From the NCBI GenBank assembly GCA_038845975.1, contig JAWBQF010000044.1:1-17555 (forward strand): DNA of 17,555 nucleotides, given 5' to 3'. The translations under genes and the position numbers were made by a program. The stretch comes from Candidatus Methanomethylicia archaeon (lineage in GTDB: Archaea; Thermoproteota; Methanomethylicia; CALHIW01). Every line of letters starts with the position of its first letter. Positions within the stretch are counted from its first letter, which is position 1. The notes under the pieces were generated by a model. It saw only the letters and a program-made list of their open reading frames with translations. It was not told the origin of the DNA and ran no database searches. This document shows positions 720 to 14,537 of this stretch, piece by piece.

Positions 720-2483
720 ATGGCTTCATCATTTATCTATGCATCCCATCTTACGGAATCTGTTAGGTTTCTCATAGAGCTATTTGAGGATAGGTTGAGG
801 AGTGCTTCAGGTCAGGAATGGCTTAAGTCATTATTTAGAAATATTAACTATACAGTTCTTAACAATTTCTTTAAACAATTTTTCGGTTCCGGTAGTTTTA
901 GGATTTTCGGTGTTGATGGATCTATAGCTCAGGAGGAGAGGCTTGAAATGCTTTTACTATATGTATGTGCTGCTGGATATTACGGTAGGCTTAGTGTTAA
1001 TGGTGATGTTAAAGTTGATGTTTCTAATCCTGAAAGGGAGAAGGATATGGTTTTAACTGTTAGTGTACCGTTATGGATTGAGGATTTACCATTTATTGAG
1101 CCTAAGCTTGGAGGTTCAACAAGCGATTTTGAGATTTCGAGAAGTATTGAAAGCATATCCTACGCATTAATGAAGCTTTCGGAACTTACATTAAGCATGA
1201 AGGCTTTAGATAAAGGTAATGTTAGGATTCTGCTTTTCGACGGTCTCATATCCGGATCCTATAGTCCCCTCCTAAGAGATTTCAGAGTTCTTACGTCTGA
1301 GAGCTCATGCATTATTGAGGGTTTAGATACTCCTAAGGGTAGAGTTAGTAAAGCTGATTTAGTTATTGCTGGAAATATAGGTTCAGGAATCATCAATATT
1401 CCTAGAAGAAGCATATATGCTAAATATGCTTTAGTAAAGTATTTAATTGATAATCATCCAGGTGAATGGGTTAATATTAATGATTTAATATTAAGAGTAG
1501 GTGTTAAGAAAGAAGCTTTTAGAGATCTTATTAAGCTTAACAGTAGACTTAACGGGGAGGTTATTGAGGTTAAAAACGGCCATGTAAAAATCAATGATAA
1601 CCTAGTAAACTACTGGTTTAAAGTTGAATATGCATGTAAAAACGTAATTGAACACATTTTAGAAAGTCGGAGGCATCCATTAATGTTTAGAAATAAATGG
1701 ATAACATCCCTAGATATAAATACTTTAAATCTAATACTACTATATAAGATAATTGATTTAGCTTTGAGAAACAATATACTTGTTGTAGGAATAGCTAAGG
1801 ATACGAATGCTACAGATCTTATTAGAAATGTTAAGATGATTTCTGGGGGAGGAGATCTATCTAGTAAAGTGTTTAACTTGAGAAGTGATCGAGCACTACT
1901 AACAATACTTAGTGCTTTAAACTATGAGAATATAGAAACTCCATGGAGAACATTAGAGTATGATTACTGTTTCTCAACAGTTCTTACAGAGGGTAGTGAG
2001 GTTAAAGCTGTAAGAAAAATTATAACTAGAGAATGTTTCCTCGTGAAAAGCTACTTCCAGCTCAGATCCTCAGATATTGATCCATCAATTAGAAGCCCAG
2101 TATTCTGTTATGATAGACCATACTATCCATTATTCGATAATCTAAACGTTAAAGAAGTTAAAGCTATTGAGAAGAGTAAAACCACTACTATTAAGCCATT
2201 CATTGAGGGTAATGAATACAGCATTATTGGAAACATCATCCTCTATGTTTTAAGCCTATCGGATAATCCTAATATTATTGAGGAAATGGGACATAATCAT
2301 CTACTATTCCTATCAGATAAGCTGGCTAAAACACTTTCCAAACAAGCTCAAACAATGATTAAGGGTATAGCAGATATAGAGCTTGGATCAGTAGCTAGAA
2401 AATATAAAGCATACTTCGCATCAAGAAGATTTAGAGATATACGTTCAGAAGCTGAAAGACTAAGAGAAACTAAAGGATACTAA
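720..2483 (+). CDS. nurA: NurA-family nuclease, enlarged (587 aa), with probable internal winged-helix insert
   Basis: NurA-type motifs: GVDGS (D66), helix MKLSE (E155), LLFDG (D174), VVGIAKD (K360), SDRALL, and C-terminal GHNHLLFLSDKLAK, a variant of the GYPxxLxxAH/D motif. Confidence 0.82.
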   Translation: MASSFIYASHLTESVRFLIELFEDRLRSASGQEWLKSLFRNINYTVLNNFFKQFFGSGSFRIFGVDGSIAQEERLEMLLLYVCAAGYYGRLSVNGDVKVDVSNPEREKDMVLTVSVPLWIEDLPFIEPKLGGSTSDFEISRSIESISYALMKLSELTLSMKALDKGNVRILLFDGLISGSYSPLLRDFRVLTSESSCIIEGLDTPKGRVSKADLVIAGNIGSGIINIPRRSIYAKYALVKYLIDNHPGEWVNINDLILRVGVKKEAFRDLIKLNSRLNGEVIEVKNGHVKINDNLVNYWFKVEYACKNVIEHILESRRHPLMFRNKWITSLDINTLNLILLYKIIDLALRNNILVVGIAKDTNATDLIRNVKMISGGGDLSSKVFNLRSDRALLTILSALNYENIETPWRTLEYDYCFSTVLTEGSEVKAVRKIITRECFLVKSYFQLRSSDIDPSIRSPVFCYDRPYYPLFDNLNVKEVKAIEKSKTTTIKPFIEGNEYSIIGNIILYVLSLSDNPNIIEEMGHNHLLFLSDKLAKTLSKQAQTMIKGIADIELGSVARKYKAYFASRRFRDIRSEAERLRETKGY

Positions 2484-3910: not shown

Positions 3911-4831
3911 TTGAAAAAAATTTCTTACCGTGATGTTGGGTTGAAGTATACCTTTAACCCGTATGATAAGCCTGTAGCCTATGTTAAGCCTGGTGAAACT
4001 CTAATTTTAGAGGTTGAGGATGCTGCTTCCGGGCAGATAAGGAAGAATGAAGATGTAAGAGATCGAGAGAAGATTCCATTTGCAAATCCTGTTGTGGGCC
4101 CAATATATGTTGAGGACGCTACACCTAAGGATACGTTATCTATAGATGTACTTGATATAAAGCCGTTAATAGGGCAGGGTGCAACATACCTATTTAGTCT
4201 TAGTCAGCTATACGTTTTCGGAATTCCGATACATAGCTTTCTAGATATGCCGTTTAAGCAGAAAACAGTAATATGTAGAGTTAATGGTGAAAAAGTTCAA
4301 TTTAAAGATATTTCCTTACCATATAGGCCTATGATAGGAACCATAGCTACAGCCCCCTATCCAGAGATTGATGCAATATCTTCTAGTGCTCTTCCAGGTA
4401 GGCATGGAGGCAATATGGATATACCTGATATATGTCCAAAATCTACAGTTTATCTTCCAATATTCCATAATGGAGCCTTCCTCTACGTAGGTGATGTACA
4501 TGCCATACAGGGTGATGGAGAAATTTCAGGTGTAGCTATTGAAATGCCTGCTGAAGTTAAAATTCAATTAGGCTTAGTTAAGGGTAAGAGGATAGGATGG
4601 CCTAGAATAGTTAAAGAGGATGAGTTAATGTGTATTGTAACTACTAGTGCTGATAGGGGATTAGAGAATGCTATTAGAACAGCCTACCTTGAACTTATAC
4701 TATGGATGTGTGAGGAATTCGGCTTCGATAAATATGATGCATTAATGCTATGCTCCCAAGTAGGTAGAGTACGAATAGGTAACTTATGGAGTGTAGCTGT
4801 AGGTATTGAGAAGAAGTATCTTAAACAGTAA
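3911..4831 (+). CDS. Acetamidase/formamidase family protein (FmdA/AmdA)
   Basis: Motifs VKPGETL, NPVVGPIYVE, PMIGTIATAP, HGGNMD, GDVHAIQGDGEISGVAIE; TTG start after a GGTGA SD (3902-3906). Confidence 0.93.
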   Translation: MKKISYRDVGLKYTFNPYDKPVAYVKPGETLILEVEDAASGQIRKNEDVRDREKIPFANPVVGPIYVEDATPKDTLSIDVLDIKPLIGQGATYLFSLSQLYVFGIPIHSFLDMPFKQKTVICRVNGEKVQFKDISLPYRPMIGTIATAPYPEIDAISSSALPGRHGGNMDIPDICPKSTVYLPIFHNGAFLYVGDVHAIQGDGEISGVAIEMPAEVKIQLGLVKGKRIGWPRIVKEDELMCIVTTSADRGLENAIRTAYLELILWMCEEFGFDKYDALMLCSQVGRVRIGNLWSVAVGIEKKYLKQ

Positions 4832-4858: not shown

Positions 4859-6628
4859 ATGAATGGTTTTTATTTCATGAATCCATTCGATGATTTAAAC
4901 GGCTTCTTCAAGGCTAGGCTTAAATCCTCCCAGATTAAGGAGAGAACATATATGGTTAGAGAGGGATCAATAACCCTTTCAAGTATGCTTGGTATTTTTG
5001 AGGCTGAATTCAATATTAAGGTTTTAAGCAGGCTTGAAAAGCCCTGCTTTATAGCTTCTAAAAGATATGGGGGGGATGGTGATGTATATCTAATATATGA
5101 GGTTATCGGAGTTAAACCAGTTCATTACCAGCTTCTATCTATGAGTCCAAACATGCCTAGAACATTAAGGCTTGACTTTCTTGAAAAAATCGATAAGAGC
5201 TGGGGTGCTAGTGAAGATACATGGATAGATATATATTCTGTATACATAGGATACATTATGAAGTTTAAGAATGGAGAATTTGTTTTCGAGAGGAATGAAA
5301 CAATTTCACCACTAGAAGGCTCTGAAGCTAAGCTTCTATCAATTGAAGCTGTTGATAAGCTTGTTAATGTCCATGGCGGTGTCCCTATAGGAGTTATGGA
5401 GGGGTTTAATAGGGAGTTAACAATTAATCTTGAGAGGCTTATTAAGTATCATGGTGGAGTATTTGGATTTACAGGTGTTGGAAAGTCAAACATTACATCT
5501 GTTATTATTAGAAAAGTATTTGAATACATGCCTGATACAAGAATAGCAATTATAGATACTGCTGGAGAGTATAGTATAGGTCTTCTCGACCTAATTCTTA
5601 AAGATGGAGTAATATATACTACTGAGAATTTTAATCAAAACATTGAATCCTTCATTTCATCCCAGGTTATTCCTGAAACCCTCCTAGAAAAAATTAATAT
5701 TAACGTTTTAGAAGCATCAGTCCAGAAACTATTCAGTAAAGATAGAGTTCAAAAAGTCAGCATGGAGGCTGAAGAATCTCTTGAAGACATAATACAGCTA
5801 TTAGAGGAGGAAGATAGAGCTGAAGCTAAAAGCCTCGCCTTAGATATTAAGAATTTATTAAGAAAGCACAGCATACCGTCATCTACAAGTCTTAAAGAAA
5901 TTGTAAGCCATAAACTACATGATGAAATTCAAGCTATAATTAGTAATTACCAAAATGAATTGAGAAAGTTAAGATTTCCACCTGAAAAGCTAATCTCAAA
6001 AATAGATTATATAGCTAGAATTATTGGGGAGACTAAGGAGGACTCTAAAAGACGTGGTTTAACACCTGAAGCATTAGCTAGTAATCTTACAAGTCCAGTT
6101 AATAGTGAATTTGAGAGGCTTACAGTAATCTATATTCCCGACATATATGATGCAAGAATATTTACAAGTAGACTTATCAATAAGCTATTTGATGAGAGGA
6201 AAAAAAGTATTCAAGGTGCTCGTGTCCTAGTAGTTATTGATGAAGCTCAAGAATTCATTCCAGATAGAGTTGCTAAAGAAGACTATACCTACGATGCAAA
6301 CATAGCTGTTGAGAGACTTCTAAGACAGGGAAGAAAATATAGGCTGCATGGATGGATAAGTACTCAACGTGTAGCCCACCTAAACGTTAACGCAATACAG
6401 CAAATACAGAGCTTCTTCACCGGAACCCTACCGAGAGAGTACGATAGGAGAGTTATTGCTGAAGCTGCAGGTATAAGTCCAGATATACTTGATAAAACAG
6501 CATATTTAGATGTTGGTGAATGGCTATTTATATCCTTCAGAGCTACAAAACTTAAAAACATCCCAGTATTCATAAAAACAGAAGATAATGAAGACATACT
6601 TTCAAATAGATTATTGGGAATGATGTAA
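4859..6628 (+). CDS. HerA-like (DUF87/FtsK-HerA superfamily) ATPase
   Basis: HGGVFGFTGVGKS (Walker A), IIDTAGEY, VVIDEAQEF (Walker B), RQGRKY (arginine finger), ISTQR. Beta-rich N-terminal region compatible with a HAS barrel. Start may be the ATG at 4877. Confidence 0.9.
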   Translation: MNGFYFMNPFDDLNGFFKARLKSSQIKERTYMVREGSITLSSMLGIFEAEFNIKVLSRLEKPCFIASKRYGGDGDVYLIYEVIGVKPVHYQLLSMSPNMPRTLRLDFLEKIDKSWGASEDTWIDIYSVYIGYIMKFKNGEFVFERNETISPLEGSEAKLLSIEAVDKLVNVHGGVPIGVMEGFNRELTINLERLIKYHGGVFGFTGVGKSNITSVIIRKVFEYMPDTRIAIIDTAGEYSIGLLDLILKDGVIYTTENFNQNIESFISSQVIPETLLEKININVLEASVQKLFSKDRVQKVSMEAEESLEDIIQLLEEEDRAEAKSLALDIKNLLRKHSIPSSTSLKEIVSHKLHDEIQAIISNYQNELRKLRFPPEKLISKIDYIARIIGETKEDSKRRGLTPEALASNLTSPVNSEFERLTVIYIPDIYDARIFTSRLINKLFDERKKSIQGARVLVVIDEAQEFIPDRVAKEDYTYDANIAVERLLRQGRKYRLHGWISTQRVAHLNVNAIQQIQSFFTGTLPREYDRRVIAEAAGISPDILDKTAYLDVGEWLFISFRATKLKNIPVFIKTEDNEDILSNRLLGMM

Positions 6629-10159: not shown

Positions 10160-11500
10160 TTATGCAGTAAACGGTGGATGCCTATAATATATCCATGCAG
10201 GCAGTACTTTAAGATTCTCTAGTAACGGGATTTCAGCACCTTTATGCACTATTCTTCCATACGGTACCTCATATATGGCCTGATGGTCTTCAGGCCTTAT
10301 CCATCTAGGACCTGCGGGAGTCATGATAACCACTCCCTCCATAGCTTTAATAAGCTTATCAATATCAAATGTCCCTACCTTCTCTAATGCATATTTAATT
10401 AGGTATATTGCTGAATAGGTGGTTTCGGCTGAGTATGCAGGATATCTACCCCATCTCCTCCTAAACCTCTCTACAAACTCCTTGTTTACCGTTGTTGGTG
10501 GGTATGGCCATATGTATCTACCGCTTACCCATGTACCGTACTCGGCTGTTGGATAGCTTGCTCCAAGCATATAGGCTATATCCATTGAGTAGCCCATAGG
10601 GTTAATTATAGCCTTAATCTTTCTATAGAGCCCCATCTCCACCGCCTGTGTCTGTAGGGTTTTCAGCTCTATAGCCCATTCAGTAGTAAATAATCCCTCA
10701 GCATCCGTAGCAAGAACAGTACTTATGAATGGAGAGAAATCTGTTGTTCCAAACTTAGCCCATTGCTCACTTACAAACTCAGCATCTGGTCTGTAAGATT
10801 TAAGGGTTTTCATGAAGAAATCCCATGAAACCCTACCGTACTCATAGTCAGGATTTACTCCAGCCCACTTCCTAATGGGTAGATCCTTAGCAACATAAGC
10901 AGCTAATATACCATCCTGATATACAGGTACTGAGATACGGAATATCTGCTTAATATTTTTAGAAAATACAAGCTCCTCGGTAAGCCTATGTGTTGCAGCG
11001 TGAGTAGCAATAAATATCTTATTAAGCTCAGACATTATTTCACCAAGTTTAAGTGCATTACCGCTTGAATCCACACCTACAAGAAAATCAGCTTTCTCCC
11101 CCTCAACAAGTTCTCTACCCTGCTTAACAACATCAGCCTGCTCATCCCTAAATGATAGTTCAATATTGCTACCAAGAATTCCTCCAGCTGCATTTATCTC
11201 CTCAGCTGCAAGTCTAGCTCCCTGCTCAATATATTCCCCATAGGTTGCCCATAAGCCAGATCTTATACCTAACACTCCAATCTTTACTGTTGGCTTCGGA
11301 AGTTTAGAGATAGCAGGTACCTCCTTTGTTACTGTTACTTCTTTCGCAACCTCCTTTGTTACTGTTGCTTCCCTTACTACCTCCCTTACTTCAGATGGTT
11401 TAGCACCATAGCCAATAACAGCACCAACAATTAACCCTCCAACACCCGTAGCTAAATACTTAATAAAGTCTCTTCTCCCAGCTTTTTCAGAGAGAGACAT
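10160..11500 (-). CDS. Liv-type (periplasmic binding protein type 1) substrate-binding protein with Tat-like signal
   Basis: Probable start MSLSEK at 11500 (the track extends to 11548). RRDFIK twin-arginine motif plus hydrophobic helix; EEINAAGGILG, DYEYG, TTDF, IRPEDHQ. Confidence 0.88.
   Translation of the reverse strand: MSLSEKAGRRDFIKYLATGVGGLIVGAVIGYGAKPSEVREVVREATVTKEVAKEVTVTKEVPAISKLPKPTVKIGVLGIRSGLWATYGEYIEQGARLAAEEINAAGGILGSNIELSFRDEQADVVKQGRELVEGEKADFLVGVDSSGNALKLGEIMSELNKIFIATHAATHRLTEELVFSKNIKQIFRISVPVYQDGILAAYVAKDLPIRKWAGVNPDYEYGRVSWDFFMKTLKSYRPDAEFVSEQWAKFGTTDFSPFISTVLATDAEGLFTTEWAIELKTLQTQAVEMGLYRKIKAIINPMGYSMDIAYMLGASYPTAEYGTWVSGRYIWPYPPTTVNKEFVERFRRRWGRYPAYSAETTYSAIYLIKYALEKVGTFDIDKLIKAMEGVVIMTPAGPRWIRPEDHQAIYEVPYGRIVHKGAEIPLLENLKVLPAWIYYRHPPFTA
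11319..11366. repeat. 30-bp-period direct repeat encoding the TVTKEV linker
   Basis: ACCTCCTTTGTTACTGTT at 11319-11336 and 11349-11366. Confidence 0.8.
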
Positions 11501-11805
11501 AAATAAGCCCAAATATTTATTACAATACATACTATTAAGCTTTTCCATCTAGTAAATGTTTCTAGTAATTAGTAGTTTATACTATATATAGATCTCATTT
11601 ATCTTTCTATGTTATATTAAGTTACAGTAATAAAGTTTTATACTAGTTCCCCTTATACTGTTAGGTTAAGTCTTAAATTCTAGAGCTTACTATAATCTAG
11701 CTTAATAGTATTAGCTCCACTATGCTATGTATTTAGATGTTAAAATATTCTTCTAAATGTTTATTCTTAATGATGTTAACCTATATTGCCTCATTATTAT
11801 GGATA

Positions 11806-12482
11806 GGTTCTGTCCGGATAAGAAATGAGCTGGTAAATTGATATTAAATTGATATTATGGATATATTAGCTTAATTATTAGATTTAGGGTTCTCTCCGGA
11901 TAAGATATAGGTTGAGAATAAGTTTAATCTTTTCCTGTTTTGTTTCTTTCCTAAAGTATTGTTGCTATTCTTATCTTAAAAAGTTTAATATTTTAGTCAT
12001 CTCTTGCTTTTTTAAAATTTAATGTTAAATATGATGATGTGATAATAAGTCATCTCTTGCTTTCCTTGCCTTATCTTAGAAAGTCGTAGTAGAACTTAAA
12101 GCTCTTAGAAGCTGTTAGATGCCTTAAAGCCAGGCTTTGTTCGCTCCCACTTAGCTTTCTAAGGGTATTCCTTAAGTTGATGTTATGGAAGAATATGCTT
12201 GTGCGATGCTTTAGGTAAACAAAACCCTTTCCACCAAGTTTCTTCTCCATGTGTTTGATGCTCTTGCTCTAAGCTCAATCGCTCAATTCCCTCCTTAAGC
12301 CAACCCTCCATATCCCTTGGCTTGTTAGGCATTTATTAAGACTCCTTGAAGGAAAAGTCTACTTGCTAAGAACTTCTAATAGGGTAAGCCCTTATCTCTA
12401 CAAGCTCCTAGCCCAATCTATTAATTGGGCTGGGTAATTAATATTATGGAGGTTCCAGTCCAACTTTTATCCGGACAGAACC
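11806..12482 (-). mobile_element. Non-autonomous IS6-family element E1 (677 bp) with deleted and frameshifted transposase
   Basis: Perfect 16-bp TIR GGTTCTGTCCGGATAA (11806-11821 / 12467-12482); 8-bp TSD TATGGATA (11798-11805, 12483-12490). Minus-strand remnants AQLIDWARSL, IRAYPIRS, LNKC, WLKEGIERL, HQTHGE/NLVER/YLKHRTSIFFHNIN, with stop at 12073-12071. Confidence 0.9.
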
Positions 12483-12490
12483 TATGGATA

Positions 12491-12870
12491 GGCTTTGTTA
12501 ACTTAAGCATGTTTTATCACCTCTATTTTGGTATTGTATCTTCTATGAATTCTTAGCTTTTATTTTCCTGTTAATCCATGTTTCGTTCAGTATGTATGCT
12601 ATTGATTTTATAAGCATTAATGCATGCTCATTACCGCATTTATCCTTCATGCACGGTATGTAGTTATCGAATAATCTAGTTCTATCCTTAATATAATATA
12701 AAGCTTAAAATATCTGAAGCCATCCTAGAAGAACATGAACGAAAATATATATAAGCAATAAACAACTAGAGTAAATGGAGTTCTCTACCTAACAAACTTA
12801 ACAACTTTAACCATAGATTCACCGTAAACAAGGAAGAGAAAACCCAAATAAATCTAAAGTTAACAAAGCC
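12491..12870 (-). mobile_element. Non-autonomous IS6-family element E2 (380 bp, MITE-like)
   Basis: Perfect 14-bp TIR GGCTTTGTTAACTT (12491-12504 / 12857-12870); flanked by TATGGATA (12483-12490, 12871-12878). N-terminal remnant MVKVVKFVR*RTPFTLVVYCLYI from 12814 and C-terminal remnant IKDRTRLFDNYIPCMKDKCGNEHA (12692-12543). Confidence 0.88.
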
Positions 12871-12926
12871 TATGGATAAGTGGTAAAATTTAAGTAATTT
12901 AATAAATATTATTCTGGTGACAATTT

Positions 12927-14537
12927 ATGTTTCAGCTTAATATGAAACATATTTTAGAGAGAGCAAGACTATATTTTGGTAGGAAGGAGATTGTATCAAG
13001 GGTTGTTGATGGCGAGATTGTAAGGTATAATTACGAGGAGTTTTATAGGAGAGTTTGTAAATTGTCTAATGTTTTAAGGAATGATTTAAATGTTAAAGAG
13101 GGGGATGTGATTGGAAGCTTCGGATGGAATACTCATAGACATCTTGAGCTTCACTTTGCAGTTCCTTGTTTAAAAGCTATACTGCATACTATAAATATAC
13201 GTTTCTCGCCTGATGAGGTAATCTATACAGTAAATCATGCAGGTGATAAAGTTATATTTCTCGATTCTGATTTTCTACAGGTAGTTGAGAGTATATCTGA
13301 TAGGTTGGAGACTGTGGAGAGATTTGTGATTATGGGTCCTAAACAATCTACAAAGCTTAGGAATGCGTATTTTTATGAGGAGATGCTAAGCAGGGCAGGC
13401 TCAAGCTTTAATTTCTCCGATATTGATGAGAATTCACCTGCAGTTATGTGTTACACTACAGGTACGACAGGTAAGCCTAAGGGGGTTATGTATACTCATA
13501 GAGGAATATTTCTGAGAAGTATGGCTACATGTCTAGCTGATACTTATGCCCTATCTGAGAGGGATGTAATTATGCATGTAGTTCCCCTATACCATATAAG
13601 TGGATGGTTTATGCCTTATGCTGCGACTCTTACTGGATCGAAGCAGGTTTTGCCTGGGGTAAGACCTAGATCTGAAACCCTATATGAGCTTATAAGGGAT
13701 GAGAAGGTTACTGTTAGTGATGGTGTTCCAACAGTATGGATTGACTTCCTAAACTTCGCTAGGGCCAGGGATAAGAGGGATATTAGTAGTCTTAAAAGAC
13801 TAATTGTAGGAGGGTCTGCTCCACCTAAAAGCTTAATAAAAGCATATTGGGAGGAGCTTGGAGTTAAGGTTATACATGCATGGGGTATGACTGAAACCTA
13901 TGATTCGGCAGTTGCATGCATGCTTAAAAGCTATATAGAAGATCTACCTGAAGAGATAAGATACAATGTTATGGCGAAGCAGGGTTTACCATTTCCAGGA
14001 ATAGAAGTTAACGCTATAAATGAGTATGGTAAGCCGATACAGTGGAATGGGGAGGAGAAGGGTGAGCTAATTATAAGAGGTGCATGGATTATTGATGAGT
14101 ACTATAGGGATCCTGAGAGAACTAGGGAATCATTTATAGATGGATGGCTTAGAACAGGTGATGTAGTGACAATAGATAGTGAGGGATACATATGTATTGT
14201 CGATAGATTAAAGGATGTGGTTAAGAGTGGGGGTGAATTCATCTCATCAATAATTCTGGAGAATGAGATTATGGCTCATCCAGCAGTTCTCGAAGCAGCT
14301 GTTATAGCAGTTCCACATGAGAGATGGATGGAACGCCCATTAGCATGTGTTGTACTTAAACAGGAGTTTAAGGATAAAATATCAGAGAGGGATATTTTAA
14401 GCTTTCTTGATGGTAAGGTACCTAGATGGTGGATTCCGGATAATGTGGTTTTTCTCGATGCTATTCCTAAAACAAGTGTTGGAAAATTCGATAAGAAGAC
14501 GTTAAGACAAATGTTTAGTAAATATCAGTTAAAATAG
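12927..14537 (+). CDS. AMP-forming medium/long-chain fatty-acyl-CoA ligase (AlkK/DmdB-like subfamily)
   Basis: WNTHRHLELHFAVP, YTTGTTGKPKG, AWGMTE, GWLRTGD, DRLKDVVKSGGE, PKTSVGKFDK. Confidence 0.92.
   Translation: MFQLNMKHILERARLYFGRKEIVSRVVDGEIVRYNYEEFYRRVCKLSNVLRNDLNVKEGDVIGSFGWNTHRHLELHFAVPCLKAILHTINIRFSPDEVIYTVNHAGDKVIFLDSDFLQVVESISDRLETVERFVIMGPKQSTKLRNAYFYEEMLSRAGSSFNFSDIDENSPAVMCYTTGTTGKPKGVMYTHRGIFLRSMATCLADTYALSERDVIMHVVPLYHISGWFMPYAATLTGSKQVLPGVRPRSETLYELIRDEKVTVSDGVPTVWIDFLNFARARDKRDISSLKRLIVGGSAPPKSLIKAYWEELGVKVIHAWGMTETYDSAVACMLKSYIEDLPEEIRYNVMAKQGLPFPGIEVNAINEYGKPIQWNGEEKGELIIRGAWIIDEYYRDPERTRESFIDGWLRTGDVVTIDSEGYICIVDRLKDVVKSGGEFISSIILENEIMAHPAVLEAAVIAVPHERWMERPLACVVLKQEFKDKISERDILSFLDGKVPRWWIPDNVVFLDAIPKTSVGKFDKKTLRQMFSKYQLK

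Follow-up and report, generated by a model that had tools for sequence, protein, structure and literature searches.

How two unlike insertion sequences (IS) come to share one 8-bp target in exact register is the question raised by a stretch of 17,555 nucleotides, here called the window, which is the whole of contig C44 in a draft metagenome-assembled genome (2.77 Mb, 76 contigs, 33.7% G+C, 93% complete). The stretch is present wholly or partly in 14 runs from 7 studies, labelled hot springs metagenome, and one homologue of a repeat-encoded protein carries the name Candidatus Methanomethylicia archaeon. Within a short divergent intergenic region, between a binding-protein gene and an AMP-binding gene, two decayed elements that we call E1 and E2 are separated and flanked by copies of the octamer TATGGATA. 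For the host, this is an ordinary pair of dead intergenic elements. The locus touches on an open mechanistic question, which is the way IS26 and related elements locate copies that are already resident, and this question bears on how IS arrays and resistance regions are built. An original prediction, made from the letters of the window, held that the second element had re-duplicated exactly the same 8 bp, which would imply either site-specific or IS-end-directed targeting. Here we describe the two elements and their families, the recurrence of their arrangement within the genome, and the readings that could account for it.

Results

Direct reading of positions 11500-13200 gives the order TATGGATA - E1 - TATGGATA - E2 - TATGGATA, and the coordinates, the sizes and the three octamer copies that had been predicted match to the base (Table 1). 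The tips of E1 read GGTTCTGTCCGGATAA and TTATCCGGACAGAACC, those of E2 read GGCTTTGTTAACTT and AAGTTAACAAAGCC, and the two sets have 10 of 17 positions in common. The octamer was observed six times in the window versus 1.74 expected, and three of these occurrences mark the boundaries. Another copy, at 11856-11863 inside E1, is family sequence, and the copy of the E1 family on contig C1 reads TATGGATG there. Because other copies of both families are flanked differently, TATGGATA is a target duplication that is part of neither element. A search of 11400-13000 against Rfam returned no match.

Table 1. Features of the window, with their coordinates, and arrangements of stacked elements on other contigs of the genome
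Feature	Position or arrangement	Strand	Basis or remark
Left neighbour, gene for the periplasmic binding protein in an ABC transporter operon of branched-chain amino-acid type	10160..11548	-	Pfam Peripla_BP_6, E 8e-53
Target-site duplication copy 1, TATGGATA	11798..11805	.	direct reading and pattern search
E1, 677 bp, internally deleted pseudogenised IS6-family element	11806..12482	-	blastn against C1 copy
E1 outer left terminal inverted repeat, GGTTCTGTCCGGATAA	11806..11821	+	
E1 second, inner left-end repeat, GGTTCTCTCCGGATAA	11888..11903	+	repeat search
E1 transposase remnant, C-terminal part, two overlapping open frames	12071..12332	-	stop-to-stop ORFs
E1 right terminal inverted repeat	12467..12482	-	
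Target-site duplication copy 2, TATGGATA	12483..12490	.	fills the entire 8-bp gap between the facing E1 and E2 tips
E2, 380 bp, internal-deletion derivative of an abundant ~730-bp, putatively distant IS6-like element	12491..12870	-	blastn against family
E2 transposase C-terminal remnant	12546..12704	-	73% identity to P0002 residues 165-213, E 7e-27
Target-site duplication copy 3, TATGGATA	12871..12878	.	direct reading and pattern search
Right neighbour, gene for an AMP-binding enzyme of acyl-CoA synthetase type	12927..14537	+	Pfam AMP-binding, E 9.8e-74
Stack on C40	CTTAAACA - 66 bp with one E1-type tip - CTTAAACA - 59-bp MITE - CTTAAACA		perfect triple
Stack on C8	TGAAGACT - 77 bp - TGTAGACT - 60-bp MITE - CGTAGACT		each outer copy with one mismatch
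Stack on C59	GTAGGATA - MITE - GTAGAATA - F2		reaches contig end
Stack on C4	AGAAATTT - F2, 688 bp - AGAAAATT - MITE - AAAGCTTG		without third copy
Stack on C5	neighbour tip - TATAAGCA - MITE - TATAAGCA		perfect MITE duplication
Stack on C55	F2-like tip - GTTCTCTC - MITE - TCTCT - F2		row of three elements
Stack on C15	F2 tip - CTATTAG - MITE - ACTATTAG		7 bp, one base apparently lost

The family of E1 is small, with about 10 copies in 22 BLAST places. The fullest copy, of 956 bp at C1:162464-163419, matches E1 with 87% identity over E1 positions 1-606 and then over 594-677 (blastn), and about 273 bp of this copy, just ahead of its final 84 bp, are absent from E1. The inner left-end repeat, GGTTCTCTCCGGATAA, lies 82 bp inward of the outer repeat of E1, and most copies of the family begin at the inner-repeat position (C42, C15, C39, C31). 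The terminal inverted repeats (TIRs) of the family are short, with GGTTCTGTCCGGATAA at both ends, and feature GG tips and an internal cTGTt-type motif, as that motif is defined for IS6 TIRs in the account of the family in PMC7986276. Although the short frames of E1 alone matched no NCBIfam model, those at 12071-12268(-) and 12183-12332(-) resemble ORFs of the full-length C1 copy. Reading through two stops at C1:162890-163333(-) gave a match to positions 1-156 of the profile NF033587 transpos_IS6 (E 1.1e-19, 71 bits, with a curated cut-off of 125), and the C1 copy matched PF13610 (DDE_Tnp_IS240) weakly (E 2.6e-4).

The family of E2 is very abundant, with 191 places, 72 of which have both ends, and its full-length members measure about 700-730 bp. 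E2 retains family positions 1-205 and approximately 564-730, with the central ~360 bp gone and the junction near 12696/12697; accordingly, E2 positions 1-205 and 208-380 match family copies that have about 350 bp between the two parts, with identity up to 96% (blastn). All E2-family copies that we examined are pseudogenised, and their longest frame, of 145 amino acids, is 63% identical to P0002, a 228-amino-acid IS6-like transposase. P0002 itself matches NF033587 transpos_IS6 over profile positions 2-197 of 202 (E 5.7e-14, 52 bits, below the curated cut-off of 125), and Pfam found nothing in the family frames or in P0002. The family ends have GG tips (GGCTTTGTTAACTT) with a cTGTt motif, the target duplication is 8 bp, and the full size falls within the IS6 range of 700-890 bp. 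From these features, the E2 family appears to be a distant IS6-like clade. IS6-family elements are characterized by replicative transposition through cointegrates; the assembly contains no intact IS6 transposase and 13 fragmentary profile matches. The IS6-type origin that had been predicted for both elements is supported, and the alignment of E2 to P0002 and the likeness of the E1 frames to the C1 ORFs bear out the minus-strand transposase remnants.

The 8-bp duplications expected of such elements were confirmed for both families. Among E1-type end pairs, five of six show a perfect 8-bp duplication, all different (CTTATTTT, GAATAGCT, AAAATAAT, TCTTTTCG, TATGGATA), and perfect duplications flank 26 of 88 E2-type end pairs with 26 distinct 8-mers. 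These duplicated 8-mers are unrelated across both families, and sequence-specific targeting is therefore unsupported.

We then asked whether the spacing of the stack recurs. Tips were located with a degenerate TIR expression, which returned 321 ends, and outward-facing pairs were tabulated. The gaps of 200 bp or less between facing tips among these strict ends were 8, 8, 8, 8, 8, 25, 31 and 34 bp. When one mismatch was allowed, 1521 loose ends were obtained, many of them false, and their histogram over gaps of 0-60 bp contained 25 pairs, with five at gap 8 and at most two at every other gap; a control using the ++ geometry was flat. The five gap-8 places found by the expression are on C44 (the window), C40, C8, C59 and C4, and in four of the five there is a 59-60-bp MITE with IS6-like ends.

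This MITE carries an IS-type end on either side and lacks an ORF; it occurs in many copies, and its target duplication has the length of the parent's. Its profile gave 95 hits (nhmmer), and 16 of 38 near-full copies have 8-bp flanks that agree with two or fewer mismatches; when the flanks were moved outwards by 20 bp as a control, 0 of 38 did so. Facing tips within 100 bp numbered 18 across the 95 hits, with six at gap 8 and others at 5, 6, 7, 7 and 11 bp. The MITE profile added gap-8 pairs on C23 and C5, and the left side of C55 was added by reading. In total, eight facing-end pairs are spaced at exactly 8 bp, the length of the duplication (the expression found five, the MITE profile two and reading one), a tally in which the last three weigh less because several of the tips are degenerate, and which depends in part on boundary placement, as several stacked elements show degenerate non-GG tips or gaps of 5-7 or 11 bp. 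Other copies do adjoin, which answers the concern, voiced with the original prediction, that the stack might be a one-off event.

The stacks differ in how many copies of the 8-mer they retain (Table 1). At C4, F2 is flanked by its own duplication (AGAAATTT / AGAAAATT) and abuts the MITE, and the 8-mer is missing from the far side of the MITE. The register therefore tracks the resident end and not a shared hot 8-mer. We had considered such a hot 8-mer as a candidate and excluded it, since the 8-mers differ among stacks and the register at C4 follows the MITE tip rather than a common duplication. To estimate what chance would yield, we modelled 300 random insertions against the 321 tips. The expected number of events in register was 0.035, rising to 0.35 when only a tenth of the genome is taken to accept insertions, versus at least five seen, and the probability of five or more under random placement ranges from approximately 4e-10 to 3e-5.

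All of this recurrence comes from one genome. No facing-end match was found in the sole same-genus genome (62% complete) or in 39 same-class genomes, and facing-tip patterns were not found in G001. Scans of public data for facing tips with gaps of 0-30 bp returned 25 loci (9 genome, 16 metagenome). In all but one of these, a stem enters the gap in a hairpin- or terminator-like manner, with a GC content of 0.32-0.56 and bacterial titles where given. The exception, L032, has a gap of 8 bp and 33% G+C, which makes it the sole plausible extra case in the public scans.

We also examined whether the targets themselves share a sequence. We tabulated 35 sites with perfect duplications, which comprise 33 solitary sites and the window's own two and include the C40 MITE. 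These sites are AT-rich and without consensus, showing no pattern beyond a weak, symmetric occurrence of T at -8/-7 and of A at +7/+8. There is no CC/GG preference beside the duplications; it is therefore not sequence alone that makes a tip a good target. Furthermore, the 8-mers of the stacks are all unlike (TATGGATA, CTTAAACA, TGTAGACT, GTAGAATA, AGAAAATT, TATAAGCA, CTTAGTAA, GTTCTCTC). Between the two kinds of targeting offered at the outset, the IS-end-directed kind is favoured by the recurring register, whereas the site-specific kind finds no backing in stack 8-mers that differ, in 35 sites that lack a consensus or in family 8-mers that are unrelated. The reconstructed empty site had also been said to resemble the E1 TIR through GGATAA, and this likeness was no higher than in shuffled controls. 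We similarly rejected two further candidates, mimicry of the E1 TIR by the site and descent of the right flank from an E1 end that has degenerated, with local alignments no better than those of 500 shuffles.

Finally, we turned to the integrity of the junctions. Contigs of four runs were aligned to 10800-13900, with a bridging rule of 31 letters. The E1-TATGGATA-E2 junction is bridged under this rule by an 89-bp contig (record 29) that covers 12429-12517 with one difference and comes from X9, a run of another, independent hot-spring study, which rules out an assembly artefact at this junction, a possibility noted with the original prediction. Both flank junctions fall slightly under the rule: an X2 contig covers 10800-11835 with no difference and enters E1 by 30 letters, and contigs of X2, X8 and X9 span 12843/12844-13900 and enter E2 by 27-28 letters. 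Variant letters, together with contigs that end at 11554 and 11588, indicate several strains in the runs.

A 36-base pattern for the empty site, in which the flanks are joined via a single TATGGATA, had 0 matches in the metagenome contigs. Joints skipping E1, E2 or both were likewise found in none of the contigs of the four runs, which cannot prove absence. In the same-genus genome, the IS parts were the only matches to 10600-14000, and no orthologous site was found, with the binding-protein gene missing and the AMP-binding gene represented only by a 28% paralogue. As neither an empty nor a single-insert allele was found, we infer the two successive insertions rather than see them.

Discussion

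Our results are probably best explained by two unlike IS6-type elements that inserted successively into the same 8 bp, with the register directed by the resident end. A first insertion would have produced x-element-x, in which x is the duplicated 8-mer. A second transpososome would then have made its 8-bp staggered strand transfers exactly within the x copy abutting the resident tip, which would yield x-E1-x-E2-x. The resident IS6-type end, probably transposase-bound or nicked, may mark the adjoining 8 bp as a preferred target, and the mark could be the bound transposase, the nick at the tip or a distortion of the DNA. Such IS-end-directed (IR-flank) targeting would also operate when the partners are different IS6-like elements or their 60-bp MITEs. 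We infer the participation of a transposase-end complex in target choice, the order of the two insertions and the later decay of both elements in place. The idea that the stack represents a repeat-cargo-repeat array was overstated, as the locus holds decayed elements only and no cargo.

An exact stack could also arise if independent insertions struck the same 8 bp by chance or at a local hot spot, such as a small tolerant AT-rich region or a favoured 8-mer, with the resident element passive. The position of the stack in a short divergent intergenic region fits this reading, as do the large numbers of copies (191 E2-family places and 95 MITE hits) and a 10-bp match, ATTATGGATA, that connects the target with an internal E1 motif. 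However, the chance model expects far fewer in-register events than were seen, and the histogram peaks at 8 bp alone and not at neighbouring values, so that tolerance explains clustering but not the spike. Differing stack 8-mers, the absence of a target consensus and flanks that are no more E1-end-like than shuffles further count against it, and we regard such coincidence as unlikely. Still less probable, in our judgement, is that E1 and E2 inserted in separate lineages and were joined by recombination within the 8 bp, or by a chimeric assembly. The genome is a metagenome-assembled draft in 76 contigs, and several strains are present in the runs, both of which leave room for such an exchange. 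It would nevertheless still require two independent strikes on the same 8 bp; moreover, an overlap of 8 bp is unable to mislead an assembler, the contig from an independent run crosses the junction, and a single-insert allele was not seen in the metagenome contigs searched.

A rearrangement deserves slightly more weight than either, although we consider it improbable as well. In this scenario, the tip of one element is joined to a point 8 nt beyond the tip of a second element in the same molecule, through a figure-eight or adjacent deletion, and the intervening DNA is lost. Intramolecular replicative events are known for IS6-family elements, according to the treatment of the family in PMC7986276, and the exact 8-bp gap without a third 8-mer copy at C4, C59 and C23 is what such a transfer would leave; C5 may additionally show an inverted duplication (TCCTTATA versus TATAAGCA). 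However, the rearrangement predicts y-A-x-B-x, where y is not x, and it cannot yield the perfect triples of the window and C40 or the near-triple of C8. In addition, F2 at C4 is flanked by a matching duplication of its own, which is what an ordinary insertion leaves.

The successive insertion of E1 and E2 beside a resident end may be one instance of a more general mode, in which IS6-type elements target the flank of an end, identical partners are not needed and any resident IS6-like tip, whether of a 60-bp MITE or of another subfamily, would make the adjoining 8 bp a strongly favoured target. We hold this extension tentatively, at somewhat below even confidence. If it is true, insertions fossilised in this genome record the step that has been proposed to open IS26 targeted integration, here uncoupled from homology-dependent branch migration, and the mode would explain dense arrays of IS6-type elements. 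Likewise, if insertions target the 8 bp beside any IS6-type tip, target capture by an end complex would be separable from homology-dependent resolution. In annotation, the arrangement tip-8 bp-tip with a triplicated duplication could serve as a signature for the history of IS graveyards. The open-access literature that we searched contains no description of a triplicated duplication common to two stacked IS.

The stack invites comparison with the targeted conservative integration of IS26 (Harmer and Hall), for which the section on this route in PMC7986276 gives a preference of approximately 100-fold for IS-carrying targets and a reported requirement for identical ends. There, neither the IS nor the target is duplicated, and the product is IS-cargo-IS with one shared IS. 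The transposases are of the same family, and the stack resembles the first step of targeted integration. In contrast to the IS26 route as outlined there, the partners here are unlike, being from different families or MITEs, each retaining its two ends, and the 8-bp duplication gains a new copy, which is the third in the window, C40 and C8. Because identical ends and the absence of a new duplication are both wanting here, the stack works like end-targeting and is not a member of the IS26 pathway.

A closer formal likeness is found in IS30, which inserts beside its own inverted repeats (IRs) according to the portion of PMC9333248 that deals with it, and in the targeted insertion of IS911, as cited in PMC7986276. 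In each, insertion beside a resident IR leaves facing ends that abut one another with a short, constant spacing. However, in these accounts IS30 and IS911 belong to other families, transpose by a copy-out-paste-in route and target their own IRs, and their junctions are highly reactive and unstable, whereas the elements here are IS6-like, heterologous and fossilised. IS30 is also described as strict in its IRL-IRR orientation, whereas at the junctions here the MITE and F2 can each take part with either end.

Archaeal mobile elements that prefer other mobile elements as targets have been reported in Haloquadratum walsbyi, in which MGE conglomerates and 'SwitchRepeats' occur and two distinct repeats are found at the identical position in two strains (main text of PMC3119063). 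The families differ from those studied here, being mainly IS605-type, PATE and SMR, and that main text describes neither a triplicated shared duplication nor a fixed 8-bp register. In ordinary nested or clustered IS insertions, decayed elements also gather in intergenic DNA. However, nesting places one element within another and clustering produces a spread of gaps, neither of which predicts a spike at the length of the duplication. Taken together, our best reading is that the targeting recorded in this genome differs from known end-targeting in that the elements involved are unlike and the duplication ends up in three copies, which should be of moderate interest to specialists in transposition.

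Doubled left ends within the E1 family

E1, the 677-bp decayed IS6-family element of the stack, and its fullest relative, the 956-bp copy on contig C1 of the same draft genome, each carry a tandem pair of left-end repeats, which are spaced 82 and 71 bp apart, respectively. In both, the outer left-end segment repeats the ~71 bp of the right end in inverted orientation, and the remaining copies of the family start at the inner repeat. Target duplications sit outside the outer repeat in both E1 and the C1 copy, so the two left-end repeats evidently moved together as one unit.

Coordinates of repeat features and of genes in the window
Feature	Contig	Positions	Location
Doubled left end, E1	window	11806-11903	
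Doubled left end, C1 copy	C1	162464-162550	
MITE copy	C4	38948-39006	
MITE copy	C11	48222-48281	
MITE copy	C40	16878-16936	
NurA-like gene	window	720-2483	
Acetamidase/formamidase-family gene	window	3911-4831	between the NurA-like and HerA-like genes
HerA-like (DUF87) gene	window	4859-6628	

Adjoining and facing tips elsewhere

Across the genome, 95 profile matches were found for a 59-60-bp MITE with IS6-like ends, which makes 8-bp duplications and has a polar, non-palindromic core. Its terminal dinucleotides are frequently other than GG (CG, TG, AA, AC), and about one-tenth of the copies have another IS6-type tip within 11 bp. One copy belongs to a row of four tips (C5:56518-56705), which reads F2 tip (F2 is an element that also adjoins the MITE on C4 and C59), TCCTTATA, a ~93-bp piece, TATAAGCA, MITE, TATAAGCA. 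The reverse complement of TATAAGCA differs from TCCTTATA by one mismatch; the pair could be an inverted duplication from an intramolecular replicative event, or the likeness could be due to chance.

A plausible further case is L032:1201-1233, where two facing IS6-like tips are separated by 8 bp (TTGAGTTT) on a metagenome contig of another sample (33% G+C); the locus stops 110 bp beyond the tip pair. The E1 and E2 families adjoin on C1 too (C1:162251-163419), yet out of register, with 25 bp between the end of an E2-family element and the full-length E1-family copy.

Coding state, surroundings and target preference

Members of the ~730-bp E2 family are present at 191 places in the genome, and the longest open transposase frame in any copy is 145 aa; IS6 profile matches in the assembly number 13, all fragments. 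Either the family represents an extinct burst, or intact copies are missing from the assembly.

Within window positions 11554-11840, flank contigs from hot-spring metagenome runs X8 and X9 end at 11554 and 11588, and 11632-11735 is without a contig from either run. A contig from a third such run, X2, spans the same stretch with zero differences. There may be strain variation immediately left of the stack.

Among 35 perfect-duplication sites in the genome, target preference around the 8-bp duplication was weak and symmetric, with T at -8 and -7 in 19 and 18 sites and A at +7 and +8 in 23 and 24.
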